A stretch of DNA of 64,000 bases. It comes from Lachnospiraceae bacterium (GTDB lineage: Bacteria > Bacillota > Clostridia > Lachnospirales > Lachnospiraceae). The stretch lies in contig SVFN01000028.1 in NCBI GenBank assembly GCA_015056815.1, positions 399 through 64,398 of the forward strand. The letters are read 5' to 3'. Below the pieces are notes generated by a model. That model saw nothing but the letters and a program-made list of their open reading frames with translations. It was not told the DNA's origin and made no database searches. Below are positions 8,347 through 48,884 of the stretch, in pieces. Position 1 is the stretch's first letter. Every line of letters begins with the position of its first letter. Both the position numbers and the translations under genes were made by a program.

Positions 8347-9281
8347 GGGTGAGCGATGTGGCAGAAAAGACAGCCTCAAAAAAAAGAGAGCCGGTCATAC
8401 AGGTAAGAAATCTCTACAAAATATATAAAGTGGGCGATTCAAAGGTAAGGGCACTTAACGGTGTGGATTTTAATATCTACAGGGGAGAGTTCTGTTCGAT
8501 CGTAGGCACTTCCGGATCAGGGAAATCTACATTGCTGAATATGCTTGCAGGTCTGGAGAAACCAACAAAGGGAAGCATTGTCATAGCGGGCGAACATATG
8601 GAAACCAAAAACGAAGGCCAGCTGGTTAAATTCCGGCGCGAGCACATTGGGTTTATTTTCCAGTCTTTTAATCTGCTGTCTACGTTAAATGCGATTGAAA
8701 ATGTGGCGTTGCCGCTGACTTTTCAGGGGGTAGATAAAAAGAAACGTTTGGAAGTGGCATCAAAGATGCTGGATCTTGTGGGACTTGGCAAGCACAAGAA
8801 GCACAGACCTACCCAGATGTCCGGCGGTCAGCAACAGCGCGTGGGAATCGCGCGTGCGCTGGTGGTAGATCCTGAGATCATATTTGCGGATGAGCCAACC
8901 GGTAATCTGGATTCCAATACCTCAAGGGAGGTTATGGAATTGATCAAAAAAATCGTCCGGGAGAAAAACCAGACACTTGTTATGGTTACTCATGATGATC
9001 ATCTTGCGGGATTTGCGGACAGGATCTTCAGGATCAGCGATGGAAAAATCATTTCGATCGAAGAGCCGGGAGTGGATGCACTTGAATCGGAGAAACAGCA
9101 GCGCTCTGAGAAAGCGGGAAAAGTGAAGACAGATCCTGAGAAGACAGAAACCGATAAAAAGAGGACGAAAAAGCCGGGATTGAAGAAAACGGCAGATAAG
9201 AAACTACAGGTGACGGAAAATAAAAAACGAGTGTTACGTAAAAAAGCAGAGGCACATCCGCCTGAAAAAGCAGGCGGTTAG
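8328..9281 (+). CDS. ABC transporter ATP-binding protein (MacB/LolD/FtsE-like) with a Lys-rich C-terminal tail
   Basis: Walker A GTSGSGKST, signature MSGGQQQRV, Walker B IIFADEPT and H-loop THD. The last ~65 aa are low-complexity and basic. The exact start is uncertain; a GTG at 8349 is an alternative. Confidence 0.9.
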   Translation: MENGKIRVSDVAEKTASKKREPVIQVRNLYKIYKVGDSKVRALNGVDFNIYRGEFCSIVGTSGSGKSTLLNMLAGLEKPTKGSIVIAGEHMETKNEGQLVKFRREHIGFIFQSFNLLSTLNAIENVALPLTFQGVDKKKRLEVASKMLDLVGLGKHKKHRPTQMSGGQQQRVGIARALVVDPEIIFADEPTGNLDSNTSREVMELIKKIVREKNQTLVMVTHDDHLAGFADRIFRISDGKIISIEEPGVDALESEKQQRSEKAGKVKTDPEKTETDKKRTKKPGLKKTADKKLQVTENKKRVLRKKAEAHPPEKAGG

Positions 9282-9366
9282 ATAAGGAAGTGACAGTAAT
9301 AAAAACGCATGATATATAACATGTGTAACGTAACAAATGTTTTTTTGAAGAGAGGAGTAATAGATC

Positions 9367-11247
9367 ATGAACAAACTGACAAAGGCTGCACGAAATATTC
9401 TGGCAGGTATCCTATGTGCAGCATTTGTATGCGGAGGAGCCGGACAATATACAGGAATCATTCAGGCGCAGGCTACAGAGTCTGTGGAAATGGGAAATAC
9501 AGGAGAACTGATCAGTGCAGGAAGTACATCGGTAATGGATCAGGGAATACAGAAGAAAAACTACGCAGCGGATAAGACAAGTGCCACTGCTGATTCTGAA
9601 ACGGACAAGTCAACGGAATCCACAACTCTGACAACAAAAAAGGTTACCGATAAGACGACGGATAAGACGACGGATAAGACGACTGACAAAAACGATTCCG
9701 ATAATGATGCCGGCAATGATGTTCCGGTTGCGGACGAAGCGCCTGTTGTTTCTTCTGACAGTGAGCTGATCATGGTGGGGGGAAACTGGGTGACACCGGT
9801 AGCCAGATACGGACAGTATGTGAACGTGGTTCTCCCTATTGTAAATATGATGAAAGGCATTCATCTGAACAATGTGATCGTGACTCCGATCGTTGCAACG
9901 AATACAGGGGAGTGGCCTTTTGAAATTGAGACCAGTGGATATACACAGACGATACCGGATCTGCCGGGCATCGGGAATGGTCAGAATGATATGGACAGGC
10001 GACGTGAGCTGACCTGGACATTTAAGGTAAAAGACAATGTGCTGAACGGTTATTATAAGGTACCGTTTCTTGTAAATTATATCGATCCTACCACCGGGGC
10101 CAATGCGCAGGTAACTCTTACAACATATGTGAGAGCAGTAGGCGCACCGGGCGTGGGAAATGCCGATGAAGATACCGGAAAGTATTCTACACCGCGTGTG
10201 ATCGTGACCGGTTATGATACGGATCCGAAGGAGGTCCGTGCCGGTTCTACCTTTACACTGACACTTCATTTAAAAAATACTTCTGTAAATACCAGCGTAT
10301 CCAATATGCTGGTGCATCTGACAACCCCTTCTGAGGGAAAAGATGCCGATACAACATATGAAGCTTTTATGCCTTCTTCGGGCTCCAATACATTCTATGT
10401 AGATCGTATTGGCAAAGGCGAAACCACAGATCTTTCTATCGAGATGAAAGCAAAGAACGATCTGATGCAAAAACCATATCAGCTGGATATCGGCATGGAG
10501 TATGAAGATGAGAATATAAACGCCTATACTTCTTCGTCGGATATTTCCATTCAGGTTATTCAGAAAGCACGTTTTGAATTTAGCTCAAAAGAGATCATGC
10601 CGGCAGAAATTTCGGTAGGAGATCAGGCAAATGTTATGTTCAGTATTTATAATACCGGACAGGTAACGCTGTATAATGTGCATGTGAAGTTTGAAGCTGA
10701 CAGCATCGAATCAGATGAAACATATCTGGGCAAGATCGAATCCGGCGCAACCGGAAGTGTGGATACGATGGTGACCGGCGCAGCCGCTACGGAAGATGAC
10801 GGTACGGTGAAGGTGATCATGACGTATGAGGATGAAAACGCCGAGACTTATACCTATGAGGAAACCATGACTCTGAATGTAATGGAAATGATGCCGATGG
10901 ATGACATGGGGATGTATGATGACATGGGTATGGAAGAACAACCACAGGGACCGAATAAGCTGGTGATCATATTGATCGTTGTGGCGGTTGTGATCGTAGG
11001 TGCCGTTGTCCTGGTGATCATTTTGAAAAAACGCCGCAGGAAAAAGGAAGCTGCAGAGCTGCTGGATGAGCTTGAAAGCGATGAATCGGAAGAAGAAACG
11101 GATCCGGAAGAGTTTGATGAAGAAGATCCATACGAAGAAGAATTCTTCGAAGATGAGGAAACGTACGAGGATGAGGACTTGGATGCGGATGATGACGATG
11201 ATGGTTTTGAGATAGTTGGAAAGGACGATACAGATGAAATTTCTTGA
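9367..11247 (+). CDS. Large secreted beta-rich protein, membrane-anchored at its C-terminus, with an acidic cytoplasmic tail (partner of the adjacent MacB-type ABC pair)
   Basis: N-terminal signal peptide (ILAGILCAAFVCGGAG...AQA). The ~500-aa extracellular region looks beta-sandwich-like (COG1361/CARDB-like by impression only). Single TM LVIILIVVAVVIVGAVVLVIIL followed by KKRRRKKE, then a 64-aa tail with 38 Asp/Glu. Confidence 0.6.
   Translation: MNKLTKAARNILAGILCAAFVCGGAGQYTGIIQAQATESVEMGNTGELISAGSTSVMDQGIQKKNYAADKTSATADSETDKSTESTTLTTKKVTDKTTDKTTDKTTDKNDSDNDAGNDVPVADEAPVVSSDSELIMVGGNWVTPVARYGQYVNVVLPIVNMMKGIHLNNVIVTPIVATNTGEWPFEIETSGYTQTIPDLPGIGNGQNDMDRRRELTWTFKVKDNVLNGYYKVPFLVNYIDPTTGANAQVTLTTYVRAVGAPGVGNADEDTGKYSTPRVIVTGYDTDPKEVRAGSTFTLTLHLKNTSVNTSVSNMLVHLTTPSEGKDADTTYEAFMPSSGSNTFYVDRIGKGETTDLSIEMKAKNDLMQKPYQLDIGMEYEDENINAYTSSSDISIQVIQKARFEFSSKEIMPAEISVGDQANVMFSIYNTGQVTLYNVHVKFEADSIESDETYLGKIESGATGSVDTMVTGAAATEDDGTVKVIMTYEDENAETYTYEETMTLNVMEMMPMDDMGMYDDMGMEEQPQGPNKLVIILIVVAVVIVGAVVLVIILKKRRRKKEAAELLDELESDESEEETDPEEFDEEDPYEEEFFEDEETYEDEDLDADDDDDGFEIVGKDDTDEIS
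9646..9693 (+). repeat. 12-bp coding tandem repeat (TDKT x ~4)
   Basis: accgataagacg / acggataagacg / acggataagacg / actgacaaaaac encodes TDKTTDKTTDKTTDKN. Confidence 0.9.
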
Positions 11248-12852: not shown

Positions 12853-14259
12853 ATGCAGGATAATGTAGGAATGGAAGCAGCAAGAAGAGCAGCAGAGGAA
12901 GCAGCAAGAAGAGCAGCACAGGCAGCAGTTATGCGTGCACAACAGGCGCAGGGGGGCGGAGGAGTACAGCCTCAGCAGACAGCACAACAGCATGTACCGT
13001 CGCCACAGGCACAGGCAGCAGCGCAGGCGGCAGCTATGCGTCAGCAGGCACAGAACGCAGGCGGAGCCGGTCAGGCACAGAATGCAGCACAGGGCGGTGC
13101 GGGAGCTGCAGATATTCAGAGGAGTGCCATGGATATGGCTGCGAAGATCGCAGAAGCATCTGCAGCGAAAGCGACTCACGATGCGATCGAGTCTATCTAT
13201 GAGGAAAAGGATGCAGCAAAAAAAGCAGCTGATGAAGGAAAAGTAAAAAAAGCAACGCTGGAGCTTGTAACAAAGACCGCTCAGGAAGCAGCGAAGAAGA
13301 TGGGCGAAGAAGGCGCAAAGCATATGCGCGAGACAAACCAGAAGGTTGAGGATGCGGTTAAGAAAGCGAAAGATGAAGCCAAAACAAAGGCGGAAGCGGA
13401 AGCGAAGAAAGCCGTAAACGATGCGGTTACAAAAGCGGACGCTGAAGCAAAGAAAGCTGTTGAAGAAGCGGTTAAGAAAGCAGAAGAAGAAGCTAAGAAG
13501 ATGATCGCTGATGCAAAAGCAAAAGCGGAAGCAGAAGCAAAGAAAAAAGTGGAAGAGGCAGGAAAAGCAGCGGAGGCCGCTCAGGCACCGAACATCGAAG
13601 CTGCTGTAAAGCGTGCGGAAGAAGAAACACGTAAGAGTGCAGGGACCGCTGCAAAGCAGGAAGAGACAAATACATTAAAGAATATAGAAGAATCGATTCG
13701 CAAAGAAGTAGATGCAGCCGCTGTTAAGAATGCTCAGGAGATGGTTAAGAAATTAGAGAGCGACAGACTGGCACGTATCGAAGAAGAGAAGAAACGTGCG
13801 GAAGAAGAAAGAAAACGTGCGGAAGAAGAAAGACTGAAACGCGAAGCGGAAGAGAAAGCAAAACGTGAAGCGGAAGAGAAGGCACGCCGCGAAGCAGAAG
13901 AAAAAGCGAAACGTGAAGCGGAAGAGAAGGCGAAACGCGAAGCGGAAGAAAAAGCAAAACGTGAAGCGGAAGAAGCTGAGCGTCAGCGTCAGGCGGCAGC
14001 TGAAGCAGCTTTCAAGCAGGTAGAAGCAGAAGCCGCAGCGAAACGTGAAGAAGAAAATGCAGCTGCTATGGCAGCGGAAGCCGCAGCAAAAGCAAGAGAA
14101 GAAGTAACCCAGGCTGCGAAACCGAAACAGCAGGGTATCTCTTTGGACGAATTCCAGAAAGCAGCCATGAAGTTAAAGATCCTTCTCGACAACGGAATCA
14201 TTTCCCAAGCCGAGTTCGACGCCGAAAAACAAAAACTTGTCGCAAATATGCGTATGTAA
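12853..14259 (+). CDS. Ala/Glu/Lys-rich low-complexity (coiled-coil-like) protein with a C-terminal SHOCT domain
   Basis: No signal peptide or TM segment. About 420 aa of A/E/K/Q-rich helical sequence. The C-terminus ISLDEFQKAAMKLKILLDNGIISQAEFDAEKQKLV matches the SHOCT short C-terminal domain pattern. Confidence 0.7.
   Translation: MQDNVGMEAARRAAEEAARRAAQAAVMRAQQAQGGGGVQPQQTAQQHVPSPQAQAAAQAAAMRQQAQNAGGAGQAQNAAQGGAGAADIQRSAMDMAAKIAEASAAKATHDAIESIYEEKDAAKKAADEGKVKKATLELVTKTAQEAAKKMGEEGAKHMRETNQKVEDAVKKAKDEAKTKAEAEAKKAVNDAVTKADAEAKKAVEEAVKKAEEEAKKMIADAKAKAEAEAKKKVEEAGKAAEAAQAPNIEAAVKRAEEETRKSAGTAAKQEETNTLKNIEESIRKEVDAAAVKNAQEMVKKLESDRLARIEEEKKRAEEERKRAEEERLKREAEEKAKREAEEKARREAEEKAKREAEEKAKREAEEKAKREAEEAERQRQAAAEAAFKQVEAEAAAKREEENAAAMAAEAAAKAREEVTQAAKPKQQGISLDEFQKAAMKLKILLDNGIISQAEFDAEKQKLVANMRM
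13837..13980 (+). repeat. Six tandem 24-bp coding repeats (KREAEEKA)
   Basis: Units begin at 13837, 13861, 13885, 13909, 13933 and 13957. They differ mainly at synonymous third positions (cgc/cgt, gag/gaa, aaa/aag, gca/gcg). Confidence 0.9.
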
Positions 14260-14281: not shown

Positions 14282-14634
14282 AAAAGAGCCGATGCCATGC
14301 GAAGCATGAGCGATTGGCTCTTTTATTATTTTTACATACGGCGAATGCCGTCGACCCCACGGACGCGAATGCGTTCGTGGGGTGCGCACTTCTCATTTAC
14401 ATAGGAACGAGGAAAAAGAGCCGATGCCATGCGAAGCATGAGCGATCGGCTCTTTTATTATTTTTACATACGGCGAATGCCGTCGACCCCACGGACGCGA
14501 ATGCGTTCGTGGGGTGCGCACTTCTCATTTACATAGGAACGAGGAAAAAGAGCCGATGCCATGCGAAGCATGAGCGATCGGCTCTTTTATTATTTTTACA
14601 TACGGCGAATGCCGGCGACCCGACGGACGCGAAT
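14282..14634 (+). repeat. Non-coding tandem array, 132-bp unit x ~2.7, each unit made of three hairpins
   Basis: The landmark GAGCC recurs at 14286, 14418 and 14550. Unit hairpins are A (AAAGAGCCGAT..ATCGGCTCTTT with a nested CATGC-GAA-GCATG tip, then a T-rich tract), B (ACGGC-GAAT-GCCGT) and C (CCCCACG-G-ACGC-GAAT-GCGT-T-CGTGGGG). The copies are nearly identical. Confidence 0.95.
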
Positions 14635-14891
14635 ATACAACAATAAAAATGGTTGAAAATGCCTTTTTTGAGGTTGAAAAATATTACAACAAAAACACTT
14701 GAAAAATATAGCAATTCCCCACATACAAATGTCAAAATTCTTACAAATAATAGTCGAAAATAAAAAGAATATGTGATAGAATATAAAAGACTTTAAAAAA
14801 CAGATATCCAAATCCGCACAAAAAATACTGTAATAATGAATCTTTTTGGGCGATTATGCGGATATCAAGAAAAAGAGGAGGTAAGAAGGGA

Positions 14892-46074: not shown

Positions 46075-47676
46075 TTAAGAGTATTGTTTCTTTAAATATT
46101 GTTTATTGAGGTACATTTTTTGATCAGCACGATTCCGGGTATCATTAAGAGACTGATCCAAAGCAGTGTCAAAAACAGCATAGCCGCATGCAATCGTCAT
46201 GGGAACAATAAAGCCTTTGCGGTTTTGCTGTTTGCAAAGGCGCTGCAAAAGAGCCTGGCGGCTGTCGAGATCTGTAGTGGAAACAAACGGCAAAAGTACA
46301 CAGAATTCATCTCCGCCAATCCGATAACATCGTCCGGTGTCATCAAATACTTCACTGATAAGTGAAGCGGCAGTTTTGATATAAAGATCACCTGCTTCAT
46401 GTCCGTAAGTATCATTACATTTTTTCAGATCGTTTAAGTCAAATATAAATATCACTTCAGGATCTTTCTTATTGCTTTCAATTGATAAGAGGTCGTTTTC
46501 ATATGCAGTGCGGTTAAAAAGCCCGGTCAGGCTGTCTGTATAGGCAAGTTTTCGGTAAACCTCATTTTCACGTGCACGCTCGATCAAAAGATGAGAATTT
46601 CTTAATGTGCTGATTCCCATGATGATGATATACAATAAAAAACCAAAAGAACCATAAACACTGACATCATGTGTGGTAATGTAATGGAATATATCCAACA
46701 TAACGGTAAACAGCAGGATTATGATACAAAGAAGGTTTAGCTTAAGCTGTGGAGTTGGTTTATTCCTAATGGAAAAAGCTATAATGGAATAAACGCAGAT
46801 AACGGCAAATATACCAAGAGATATTTCGGTGATCCACATGGTTTCAGACAGATCCATAAAACCAAGTAGCTGCAAAATCATTCTTAAAAAGATCACAAAG
46901 AGATTGAAGTAGCAGTAAAATGTCCATAGAGGATGCCTGCTGACACCAAAAATACTCCGGATAAATAATAAAAACGGAACCGGAGCCATCATCAGGCAGA
47001 TATGGGTAAAGAAGACATGTGCCACATTCCAGGGAATAAAAAGTGTTGTGATATCGCAATCCGAAAAAGTCCAGAATCCAAGCAGGATCGCAAAAACCGA
47101 AAAATGAAACAGGGTCTGTCTGCTGTCACTTGATCCGATGATAAAGACAGCATAAACAAATAGATTCAGACCTAAAAACATCATGGCAAGTGAGGTTGCA
47201 AATTTCGGAAGATCTGTGAGAAGAATTGTTTTCACGATTGAATGATACTGGCCGAAATAAGCAATACATTTCGGTGGGCGGGAATCATAGCAGGAATGCA
47301 GCTGCAGACGAATTGTGTGACCTGCATACTGGGGATGCATGATGATATAATTCCAACTGTATCCGGTGGTGTGTGTCATGTGACTGTCAGATCTGTGGAC
47401 AGAGTAAATAACAGTGTCGTCTAAAAAGACATCTGTTTCCGTGTGGGTCAGATTAAAAACAAGTACTGTCCCGGCGATATCATCAAGAGACGGTGTAAAC
47501 TCGAAAACTGCATCAGTGCCAACGATCGAGTCATTGATCTTTTCTGTCAGATTGACAACTGTGTTCGAACCGGAAAGCTGATAGACTTGATTCTGATTAT
47601 TCAAAGCCACATAGATTCCAAGGATCATACATGCAACAATCACAATTAAATAAAGCCTGGTAAAGTATTTTTCCAT
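46075..47676 (-). CDS. Diguanylate cyclase with an N-terminal 7TMR-DISM-type sensor
   Basis: Signal/anchor, a ~150-aa extracellular domain, a 7-TM block, then GGDEF with an intact RIGGDEFCVLL active site. Confidence 0.85.
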   Translation of the reverse strand: MEKYFTRLYLIVIVACMILGIYVALNNQNQVYQLSGSNTVVNLTEKINDSIVGTDAVFEFTPSLDDIAGTVLVFNLTHTETDVFLDDTVIYSVHRSDSHMTHTTGYSWNYIIMHPQYAGHTIRLQLHSCYDSRPPKCIAYFGQYHSIVKTILLTDLPKFATSLAMMFLGLNLFVYAVFIIGSSDSRQTLFHFSVFAILLGFWTFSDCDITTLFIPWNVAHVFFTHICLMMAPVPFLLFIRSIFGVSRHPLWTFYCYFNLFVIFLRMILQLLGFMDLSETMWITEISLGIFAVICVYSIIAFSIRNKPTPQLKLNLLCIIILLFTVMLDIFHYITTHDVSVYGSFGFLLYIIIMGISTLRNSHLLIERARENEVYRKLAYTDSLTGLFNRTAYENDLLSIESNKKDPEVIFIFDLNDLKKCNDTYGHEAGDLYIKTAASLISEVFDDTGRCYRIGGDEFCVLLPFVSTTDLDSRQALLQRLCKQQNRKGFIVPMTIACGYAVFDTALDQSLNDTRNRADQKMYLNKQYLKKQYS

Positions 47677-47794
47677 ATTGATTCCCTCAAAACAGCTCAG
47701 ACAAAAACTGCTGTTTATATTTTATCATCTTAAATGATCACTTTCAATAAAAAGACAAGCACAAATGACCATAAAATAACAAGATTACCCATGT

Positions 47795-47823
47795 TTGCAA
47801 TTTCCCCCATAGATGGTTATAAT
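47795..47823 (+). promoter_or_regulatory. Near-consensus sigma-A promoter (TTGCAA-17 nt-TATAAT) firing into the 108-bp repeat array and truA
   Basis: TTGCAA at 47795-47800, exactly 17-nt spacer, TATAAT at 47818-47823. The predicted TSS near 47830 coincides with the first base of the repeat array (47831). Confidence 0.65.
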
Positions 47824-47830
47824 CTAACTT

Positions 47831-48114
47831 ATCAGAAGAAAACCAAGCGACGCGGATGCGTCATTTGGTTTTCCTGATAAGTTAACGAGGAAAACGAATG
47901 TTTTCCGAGTCTTCATGATAGCAGATGCTATCATGAGGATCAGAAGAAAACCAAGCGACGCGAATGCGTCATTTGGTTTTCCTGATAAGTTAACGAGGAA
48001 AACGAATGTTTTCCGAGTCTTCATGATAGCAGATGCTATCATGAGGATCAGAAGAAAACCAAGCGACGCGAATGCGTCATTTGGTTTTCCTGATAAGTTA
48101 ACGAGGAAAACGAA
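47831..48114 (+). repeat. Non-coding tandem array, 108-bp unit x ~2.6, each unit made of three hairpins (truA leader)
   Basis: ATCAGAAG recurs at 47831, 47939 and 48047. Unit hairpins are H1 (ATCAG..GAAAACCAA..GACGC-GAAT-GCGTC..TTGGTTTTC CTGAT), H2 (GGAAAAC-GAAT-GTTTTCC) and H3 (TCATGATAGC-AGAT-GCTATCATGA). Confidence 0.95.
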
Positions 48115-48137
48115 AAAGAAAAACGTAAGGAGTGTTT

Positions 48138-48884
48138 ATGAAAAACTATAAACTGATCATTTCGTATGACGGGACAAGATATTATGGCTGGGAGCATCAG
48201 CCGGATAAAGACACCGTGCAGGGAAGACTGGAGAATGTCTTGTCCAGAATGTGCGGGATCGGTCCGGAAGAGATCAGGATAAACGGAGCAGGCCGTACCG
48301 ATGCAGGGGTACATGCCAAAGGAATGGTAGCAAGTGTTCAAATGGACACAGAGCTGAGTACGGATGAGATTCTGGATTATGCGAATCATTATCTTCCGGA
48401 TGACATAGTGATCACACAGGTAAGGGAGGCTTCCCAACGCTTCCATGCCCGTTACAATGCAGTGGGAAAGACCTATCGTTATACCTGCCATTATGGTCGC
48501 ATCAAACCGGTTTTTGATCGTAAATATGTGACGAGACTAGAATTTGTGCCGGATGTGGAAAAGATGAAGGAAGCGGCCAATGTACTGGTGGGAAAGCATG
48601 ATTTTAAAAGTTTTTGCAGTAATCCCCGCATGAAGAAATCCACGGTCCGTATCGTAGACAGGATTGAGATCAGCACAAAGAACGGTTATCTGTATTTTAA
48701 TGTGCATGGTACCGGATTTTTACAGAATATGGTCCGGATCATCGTTGGCACACTGTTAGAAGTCGGAAAGGGTGCGATGCGGCCGGAACAGGTGAAAGAA
48801 ATACTCGAGGCAAAGGACAGGAGACTTGCGGGTCCGACAGCACCACCGGAAGGACTTTGCCTGATCGAAGTGGATTATCAGTAG
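48138..48884 (+). CDS. truA: tRNA pseudouridine(38-40) synthase
   Basis: ISYDGTRYYGWEHQ and the catalytic motif GAGRTDAGVHA. Length is about 248 aa. AAGGAG RBS before the ATG at 48138. Confidence 0.93.
   Translation: MKNYKLIISYDGTRYYGWEHQPDKDTVQGRLENVLSRMCGIGPEEIRINGAGRTDAGVHAKGMVASVQMDTELSTDEILDYANHYLPDDIVITQVREASQRFHARYNAVGKTYRYTCHYGRIKPVFDRKYVTRLEFVPDVEKMKEAANVLVGKHDFKSFCSNPRMKKSTVRIVDRIEISTKNGYLYFNVHGTGFLQNMVRIIVGTLLEVGKGAMRPEQVKEILEAKDRRLAGPTAPPEGLCLIEVDYQ

Follow-up and report, generated by a model that had tools for sequence, protein, structure and literature searches.

A tandem array of hairpin modules between the promoter and the ribosome-binding site of truA in a Lachnospiraceae lineage

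Enterobacterial BIME-2/REP clusters, the BOX elements of Streptococcus pneumoniae and MIRU-type minisatellites are the described intergenic repeats closest to the subject of this report, a tandem array of hairpin modules in the leader of the tRNA pseudouridine synthase gene truA of an uncultured Lachnospiraceae bacterium from gut or rumen (GenBank assembly GCA_015056815.1, contig SVFN01000028.1; the window, that is, the whole stretch analyzed, comprises 64,000 nt, positions 399 to 64,398 of the forward strand). REPs are usually found at the 3′ ends of genes, number tens to hundreds of dispersed copies per genome and are associated with an IS200/IS605-like transposase; BOX elements can lie in leaders, and MIRUs occupy many loci per genome and are not built from strong palindromes. 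A REP is a 20–40 bp palindrome with an unpaired tetranucleotide, GTAG or CGTC, as a tag on one side (PMC3733652), and BOX has been counted among the stem-loop families (PMC2267715). Mini-hairpin DNA, of which GCGAATGC (melting temperature 70 °C), GCGAAGC and GCGAAAGC (76.5 °C both) are listed variants, stalls polymerases; its natural occurrences described so far are priming sites of phages and plasmids (PMC13037366). New hairpins can also arise by template switching, as has been published (PMC8794818).

The array in front of truA, referred to below as array 2 (array 1 lies 33 kb away in the same window), is probably a young palindromic minisatellite, specific to its species, that originated where it now lies, continues to grow there and is passively carried in the 5′ untranslated region (5′ UTR) of truA.

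Architecture of the array in front of truA

Tandem Repeats Finder (TRF) delimits array 2 at 47831–48114, with a period of 108 bp, 2.6 copies and 99% matches (score 561), and a direct-repeat search recovered the identical three copies, confirming the 2.6-unit array that an earlier, sequence-only reading of this DNA had described (Table 1). With head-to-tail units in the 10–150 bp range and high identity, array 2 qualifies as a bacterial minisatellite (variable number tandem repeat). It lies in a 461-nt intergenic region from which a GGDEF gene on the minus strand and truA on the plus strand diverge. The TTGCAA-17-TATAAT promoter proposed in the same reading was retrieved by a promoter scan, and because the scan places the end of TATAAT at 47823, a transcription start for truA near 47830–47831 is plausible. 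Array 2 begins ~7 nt past this promoter and, in agreement with the earlier description, stops 23 nt ahead of the truA ATG (48138), upstream of the AAGGAG ribosome-binding site. Its 3′ end falls inside the H2 loop, directly after GGAAAACGAA; in full units, the T-GTTTTCC that follows GGAAAACGAA is the reverse complement of the preceding bases. The TruA protein of the window is identical to MBE5872162.1 at NCBI, which comes from a metagenome-assembled genome labelled Lachnospiraceae bacterium; MBE5872136.1 is a further identical protein at NCBI.

Each unit consists of three perfect or near-perfect palindromes: H1, of 48 nt (ATCAG-aa-GAAAACCAAG-c-GACGC-GAAT-GCGTC-a-TTTGGTTTTC-CTGAT), H2 (GGAAAAC-GAAT-GTTTTCC) and H3 (TCATGATAGC-AGAT-GCTATCATGA). 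Folded as RNA, these reach −24.4 kcal/mol (z −6.5), −9.6 and −16.7 kcal/mol, respectively, and folded as DNA, −15.0, −6.1 and −8.6 kcal/mol; the truA leader as a whole folds at −148 kcal/mol, with a z of −16.7 relative to shuffles. The three hairpins per unit that had been described are thus all present and fold strongly, but H1 is 48 rather than 47 nt long, its 3′ arm having one T beyond the earlier description that forms a G.T pair, and the H1 loop of unit 1 is GGAT, not GAAT. Among the 15 nt of left flank that follow the −10 box are eleven, TAACTTATCAG, whose perfect reverse complement, CTGATAAGTTA, lies within the unit, and this inverted copy accounts for an extended first H1: in unit 1 only, the stem is 6 bp longer, with TAACTT of the left flank (47825–47830) pairing with AAGTTA (47879–47884). 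The left arm of this extended hairpin aligns with the short leader of the sister species described below. An inverted-repeat search also revealed four GGAAAAC/GTTTTCC motifs in alternating orientation within the unit, so that the 3′ arm of H1 can alternatively pair with the 5′ arm of H2.

The sequence-only reading had further held that none of the hairpins is followed by a U-tract. This is correct for H2 and H3, which lack such tracts, but the H1 core, GACGC-GAAT-GCGTC, is followed by the T-rich ATTTGGTTTT, and the two together were flagged as terminator-like, on both strands, by a simple scan. ATTTGGTTTT doubles as the 3′ arm of the larger H1 stem, and as a terminator the core is weak, with a 5-bp stem (−7.8 kcal/mol, z −1.3) and an interrupted U-run.

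GC skew lies between +0.13 and +0.24 in every 8-kb bin of the window, and most genes are on the plus strand; the skew being positive throughout, the hairpin-forming plus strand is leading-strand sequence.

Gene callers read through array 2, yielding a spurious open reading frame (ORF), P0241 (47915–48151, 78 aa), and likewise through array 1, in the sister species (9054–9332 of locus L188) and in the window (14314–14646; 92 and 110 aa); such array-derived spurious ORFs are present in public protein collections. The array 2 and array 1 periods, 108 and 132 bp, are both divisible by 3, and long frames are open through the arrays. When translated array 2 was searched against 5.8 billion proteins, its own spurious ORF P0241 was the only match.

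Table 1. Coordinates of the two arrays and of the features surrounding array 2, in window numbering
Feature	Position	Strand	Details
Sigma-70-type truA promoter, TTGCAA-17 nt-TATAAT	47795..47823	+	Promoter scan 10/12 matches; both hexamers invariant vs. sister species
Extended H1 of unit 1, loop GGAT	47825..47884	+	RNA fold −34.1 kcal/mol, z −8.9; inverted repeat I8
Array 2 unit 1, 108 bp	47831..47938	+	H1 47831–47878, H2 47889–47906, H3 47913–47936
Array 2 unit 2, 108 bp	47939..48046	+	H1 47939–47986, H2 47997–48014, H3 48021–48044; missing from contigs L001/L097, L002
Array 2 truncated unit 3, 68 bp	48047..48114	+	H1 48047–48094, then 5′ half of H2 GGAAAACGAA 48105–48114
A-rich unstructured spacer with ribosome-binding site AAGGAG (48127–48132)	48115..48137	+	Last 59 nt fold −3.7 kcal/mol, z −0.1
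truA, tRNA pseudouridine(38-40) synthase, 248 aa	48138..48884	+	Pfam PF01416
Array 1, 132-bp unit, 2.7 copies, three hairpins per unit	14282..14634	+	TRF; directly downstream of unrelated gene

Occurrence among relatives and features shared with a second array

In the sister species, TruA is 90% identical, the gene order is the same (GGDEF minus, truA plus) and the DNA is ~83–94% identical to the window, depending on the region, yet the GGDEF–truA spacer measures 179 nt vs. 461 nt in the window, and the alignment yields a truA leader of ~20 nt, TATAAT-gtagcgtatAGGAAGGtgtatattt-ATG, without the array. The surroundings of the invariant promoter hexamers are ~75% identical between the two species, and the 15 nt following the −10 box (CTAACTTATCAGAAG) align with the leader of the sister (GTAGCGTATAGGAAG). 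Compared with that leader, array 2 is an insertion of ~282 nt, placed downstream of the −10 box and ahead of the ribosome-binding site. The next species, with 83% TruA identity, has a short, unstructured leader without array 2. Neither array 2 nor related sequence was found with blastn and TRF upstream of 80 truA loci from genomes, and TRF detected no such array upstream of 80 truA loci from metagenomes. Both of these collections lack the species of the window, the best TruA match being 74% among the species representatives and 71% in the metagenome collection; in the contigs of the latter, a 24-mer of H1 had no match either. Because the sister, the 83% species and 160 further truA loci are without it, array 2 is, judged by these comparisons, a lineage-specific insertion and not a conserved truA leader. 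Absence from related truA loci is also what the sequence-only reading had itself named as speaking against its leader idea.

Divergence from the sister is uneven: the spacer following array 1 (14640–14855 vs. 9263–9480 of L188) is nearly identical, the truA promoter region (47677–47830 vs. 9822–9975 of locus L084) is ~75% identical and genes are 82% to 94% identical. A horse-gut Lachnospiraceae metagenome-assembled genome carries an unrelated AT-rich tandem repeat, 64 bp ×2.8 and not hairpin-rich, directly upstream of truA (L073, 9713–9891).

Within the species, array 2 was recovered with the same flanks in independent JGI, ENA, Logan and NCBI assemblies, and a strain with a 99% identical TruA (L190) also has it, seen at its 3′ end. 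As assembled, the array has 1.6 units in contigs L001/L097 and L002, and 2.6 units or more in L098, L003, L099 and the window. The assemblies, all of them short-read, differ by exactly one unit, and several contigs break inside the array; the one-unit difference may represent a real polymorphism or a collapse.

In each array 2 unit, about half of the sequence is an inverted copy, either of the remaining half or of left-flank DNA. Such inverted copying is, on the face of the repeat arrangement, a signature of fold-back or template-switch copying. A derivation of H3 from the −10 region was also considered; the similarity, judged by eye, is too weak to claim.

Array 1 displays a similar construction. 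Its unit includes an 18-nt perfect inverted copy of the stop-codon region of the upstream gene. In both arrays, the hairpin tips are on the plus strand, the left flank lengthens the stem of the first copy and recurs in inverted form inside the unit, and the truncated last unit ends exactly after CGAA in a hairpin loop. The two also have in common a 13-mer hairpin tip, GACGCGAATGCGT, and an 11-mer, AACGAGGAAAA, which agree in order and strand between the arrays; the 11-mer is in each case placed just past the inverted flank copy. Beyond these two motifs, the units are unalignable. The local alignment score is 26, vs. a shuffle mean of 14.3 with sd 2.0 and maximum 22. The suggestion that array 2 is the same kind of module as array 1, located in a 5′ UTR, fits better than a substrate mimic, given the 13-mer, the 11-mer and the architecture; the mobility or protein docking attached to it is hypothetical.

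CGAATG caps four of the six distinct hairpins of the two arrays; elsewhere, among the 406 tetraloop hairpins (stems ≥7 bp) of 2.2 Mb of related loci, it tips a single one, a frequency on which the explanation that GAAT loops are common in the clade was rejected. GCGAATGC caps the H1 core and two array 1 hairpins, amounting to three different hairpins in ~240 nt of unique array sequence, compared with a rate of ~1 per 74 kb per strand in the 2.2 Mb of relatives, and GCGAAGC caps one array 1 hairpin. When the mini-hairpin motif is defined as GCGNAGC, GCGNNAGC or GCGAABGC at a hairpin tip, the H1 core and the array 1 tips belong to it, and H2 (ACGAATGT) and H3 (GCAGATGC) are not exact members.

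The sister species carries array 1 as 1.7 diverged copies (L188, 9040–9262), with the same left flank, the same loop-cut 3′ end, a GCGAAAGC tip and an inter-unit junction that differs from that of the window. Between the two species, one stem pair of array 1 has changed from G-C to A-T on both sides, and each of the four single changes leaves a G.T rather than an A.C pair on the plus strand, which is weak evidence that plus-strand pairing may be kept by selection or by arm-to-arm copying. Since the sister has a counterpart of array 1 and none of array 2, array 2 is by this comparison the younger of the two; a derivation of its tip and 11-mer from array 1 is speculation.

Several further features of the arrays were noted. 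In array 2, the tip loop is GGAT in the first copy and GAAT later (47849–47862 vs. 47957–47970), and this order is repeated in array 1 of the sister (L188, 9111–9123 vs. 9255–9263). An AACGAGG motif common to both arrays (47884–47912 and 14406–14440) resembles a Shine-Dalgarno site and is followed 7–11 nt later by an ATG opening a mini-ORF of five to six codons that ends in CATGA (MFSESS* and MPCEA*). The first hairpin of array 1 has a T-run and may, by its appearance, be the terminator for the gene upstream. Directly upstream of array 1 lies the gene (12853–14259) for a 468-aa Ala/Glu/Lys-rich protein with coding tandem repeats of 24, 48 and 72 nt (EEKAKREA-type) and no Pfam match on record.

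Tandem arrays of high-identity hairpin modules are not rare in ~2.3 Mb of Clostridia loci fetched and scanned with TRF. Examples include L028 (12246–12556 and 15569–15825), L044 (14798–15018), L115 (10401–10676), L123 (12–269) and L178 (17920–18078), with L116, alongside L115, also among the loci with such arrays. One hairpin, oppositely oriented, is common to both arrays of L028, GGCGCGAAGCGCC occurs in the unit of L044, and the right flank of the L115 array is the reverse complement of the unit end, mirroring the flank pairing of the window arrays. Mini-hairpin motifs are moderately enriched in these units (6 in 719 nt vs. ~1 expected). CGAATG-tipped hairpins are sporadic in all the other loci, none with the full GCGAATGC. 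Overall, palindromic intergenic minisatellites are a common class; the CGAATG signature is not.

Origin of the array and alternative explanations

Under the in-place reading that we favor, array 2 would have been created by repeated fold-back or template-switch copying, seeded at stable single-strand DNA mini-hairpins of the GCGAATGC type in leading-strand sequence, and would then have expanded and contracted through slipped-strand mispairing or unequal recombination between the 108-bp units. Transcription from the conserved promoter would make the array a ~310-nt 5′ UTR with eight stem-loops, the first of which would stand at or next to +1, in the geometry of known 5′ stabilizer hairpins, while the ribosome-binding site would stay open. 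Its consequences for truA are probably modest: the mRNA might change somewhat in stability, or part of the transcripts might end early at the H1 core with its T-rich shoulder, and the effect could scale with unit number. Several points weigh against this reading. For ~57 nt of each unit no local source was identified, and purely random local events leave unexplained the shared 13-mer and 11-mer, the rare CGAATG tip and the CGAA loop ends. The 1.6-unit alleles could be a collapse in short-read assembly, and a loss of array 2 in the sister, a single close outgroup species, is still formally conceivable. Both the transcription start of truA and read-through are predicted, and sequence alone leaves room for a recently acquired function.

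The features common to the two arrays could have a more specific cause. It is possible, albeit unlikely, that array 2 belongs to a REP/BIME- or MITE-like (miniature inverted-repeat transposable element) family of dispersed non-coding modules, served by an enzyme encoded elsewhere, one copy of which entered the truA leader and was then amplified. The sharing of GACGCGAATGCGT and AACGAGGAAAA, with order and strand preserved over 33 kb, and the density of GCGAATGC relative to its background rate point in this direction, as do other Clostridia loci, such as L028, with clustered hairpin modules that recur within the locus. In addition, both insertion flanks resemble one ~11–14 nt stretch of the sister's leader, with ~10/14 matches each, and could be a decayed target duplication; this stretch is the A/G-rich ribosome-binding region, and the two flank copies differ from each other. 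However, outside the 13-mer and the 11-mer the two units do not align, the ends of array 2 (ATCAGAAGAAAACC... and ...GAGGAAAACGAA) are not complementary, and the inverted-repeat search yielded only internal hairpin arms, so that no terminal inverted repeats are present. Within the 64 kb of this species, two loci share the 13-mer tip, and no solo copies of the array modules were found elsewhere in the window; contigs reaching ~0.6 kb beyond its left and ~0.3 kb beyond its right end contain no further array. The joint pattern AACGAGGAAAA-N50-80-GACGCGAATGCGT had no match in viral contigs or in 185,579 GTDB species genomes, one for each species and the window species not among them, and blastn of the array against 72,556 plasmid and 50,697 phage records returned nothing. 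The unpaired GTAG or CGTC tag that defines the REP superfamilies (PMC3733652) does not flank H1, H2 or H3, the CGTC of H1 being base-paired in its stem. Among 30 large ORFs of the window scanned with Pfam, there was no transposase, REP-associated tyrosine transposase (RAYT), integrase or reverse transcriptase; all are housekeeping or regulatory, for instance, ValS, argininosuccinate synthase, ABC transporters, GGDEF/EAL proteins and SpoVAA, and the gene calls of matching contigs additionally show SpoVAC and SpoVAD. Finally, each array contains inverted copies of its own left flank, which favors a construction on the spot. Somewhat more doubtful is the view that both arrays are products of one undescribed process or element family of this Lachnospiraceae lineage, in which strand-specific and extremely stable mini-hairpins in leading-strand sequence (GCGAATGC, GCGAAGC) would serve as seeds, or would be recognized by an as yet unknown enzyme, and fold-back synthesis at these sites would write inverted flank copies and then tandem units, the arrays always ending in a hairpin loop. 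If true, it would amount to a self-propagating creation of structured 5′ and 3′ UTRs.

Other explanations place the cause in the RNA or in the assembly. We consider it improbable that array 2 is a recently acquired functional RNA platform, with GAAU- and AGAU-capped hairpins that bind a protein or protect the mRNA and a copy number that tunes truA under selection. Every hairpin tip of both arrays is on the transcribed strand, H1 begins at the predicted +1 with the ribosome-binding site kept free, and array 1 contributes one compensatory G-C to A-T change in addition to the G.T bias of its single changes, all of which such a platform would explain. Yet outside the species array 2 is not conserved, no protein was linked to it as a candidate binder, and the covariation comes from array 1 only and comprises ~5 events. 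GAAU is not known to be a stable or recognized class of RNA tetraloop (cf. GNRA/UNCG). GCGAATGC, unlike GAAU as an RNA tetraloop, is a documented DNA mini-hairpin (PMC13037366). The sequence-only reading proposed an autoregulatory leader with hairpins that mimic the TruA substrate; on this view they would imitate the anticodon arms of tRNA and so titrate TruA or sense it. All that favors it is that stem-loops lie upstream of truA. The anticodon arm of tRNA has a 7-nt loop on a 5-bp stem. All loops of the array are 4 nt, on stems of 5–25 bp, which speaks against the mimic; ARAGORN found no tRNA or tmRNA-like gene in 47600–48300, the sibling array 1 lies downstream of an unrelated gene, and the array is missing in the sister despite an identical promoter layout, in the 83% species and in all the other truA loci examined. 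Autoregulation of this kind is therefore very improbable. Least credible of all is a misassembled repeat, an idea to which the frequent contig breaks in array 2 and its varying copy number might give rise: the same junctions, with both flanks, recur in the independent assemblies, and the G variant of the first unit orders the copies consistently. An origin and growth of array 2 in place remains the reading that we prefer.

Searches for known elements gave the following results. No family of Rfam 15 reached its gathering threshold in any part of the window, and a search of 47650–48250 at E ≤ 10 gave best scores of 24.6 bits or less vs. cut-offs of 40–245; accordingly, the earlier statement that no truA leader element has been described stands. 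A CRISPR array was rejected because the whole 108-bp period repeats at 99% identity, with no unique spacers. An integron attC site, in which R″ (RYYYAAC) and R′ (GTTRRRY) pair at the base of an imperfect hairpin, was rejected by inspection, as ATCTAAC of the left flank fits R″ but its partner GTTAACG does not fit R′; the Pfam scan of the 30 large ORFs in the window revealed no integrase for this reading. A CGTC-tagged REP, a T-box, cre or other operator palindromes and CsrA GGA loops were likewise rejected, by inspection or by the tests given here.

Contigs of several independent assemblies stop at the same points beyond both window ends, on the left at L192 3390–3545 and L191 7960–8041, ~0.5 kb left of window position 1, and on the right at L195 13738–13865. 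The left stop lies within a G+C-rich structured stretch that seemingly interrupts an ORF and in which Rfam finds nothing. A repeated or mobile element is probably located there.

Relation to described systems

Array 2 provides a dated example in which, inside a single species lineage, a 5′ UTR of ~20 nt became one of ~310 nt composed of stable stem-loops, and growth of this kind is raw material for the evolution of structured leaders. Two arrays in 64 kb with the same rare mini-hairpin tips and loop ends suggest a specific mutational mechanism. On the practical side, such arrays break short-read assemblies and enter public databases as spurious proteins. As a regulator of truA, array 2 is without importance, since it is probably not one.

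Like the BIME-2/REP clusters of enterobacteria, array 2 is an intergenic, non-coding tandem array with a multi-hairpin unit, predicted to be transcribed together with neighboring genes and possibly variable in unit number. It differs from them in having no sequence relation, no demonstrated high-copy dispersal, no RAYT seen and a Firmicute host, and in sitting in a 5′ UTR between divergent genes. With BOX, organized as boxA-(boxB)n-boxC, it shares the character of a modular intergenic hairpin element of a Firmicute with a tandem inner module, but BOX is dispersed in >100 copies with conserved end modules, whereas the array 2 unit is found at one locus and no end modules were seen. The resemblance to MIRU-type minisatellites consists in near-identical, head-to-tail intergenic units of tens to ~100 bp, possible whole-unit differences between strains and a period divisible by 3.

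A comparison can also be drawn with the 5′ stabilizer stem-loops of ermC, aprE and ompA, which combine a strong stem at or near +1 (predicted here) with an unpaired ribosome-binding site; the likeness extends to the way of working only, and these stabilizers are single conserved hairpins with measured effects. Four hairpin tips of the two arrays, three with GCGAATGC and one with GCGAAGC, are exact matches to the mini-hairpin DNA of Hirao and colleagues (GCGAAGC, GCGAAAGC, GCGAABGC), a motif that is, unlike the arrays, a physical property of short DNA whose described occurrences are not chromosomal tandem arrays. A parallel to the way in which the arrays are built is offered by template-switch mutations, which likewise produce reverse complements of adjacent sequence, perfect lineage-specific stems and joint compensatory changes (PMC8794818). 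The events described there are single hairpins, whereas the arrays of this Lachnospiraceae lineage combine several stacked hairpins that are tandemly amplified and share a specific loop.

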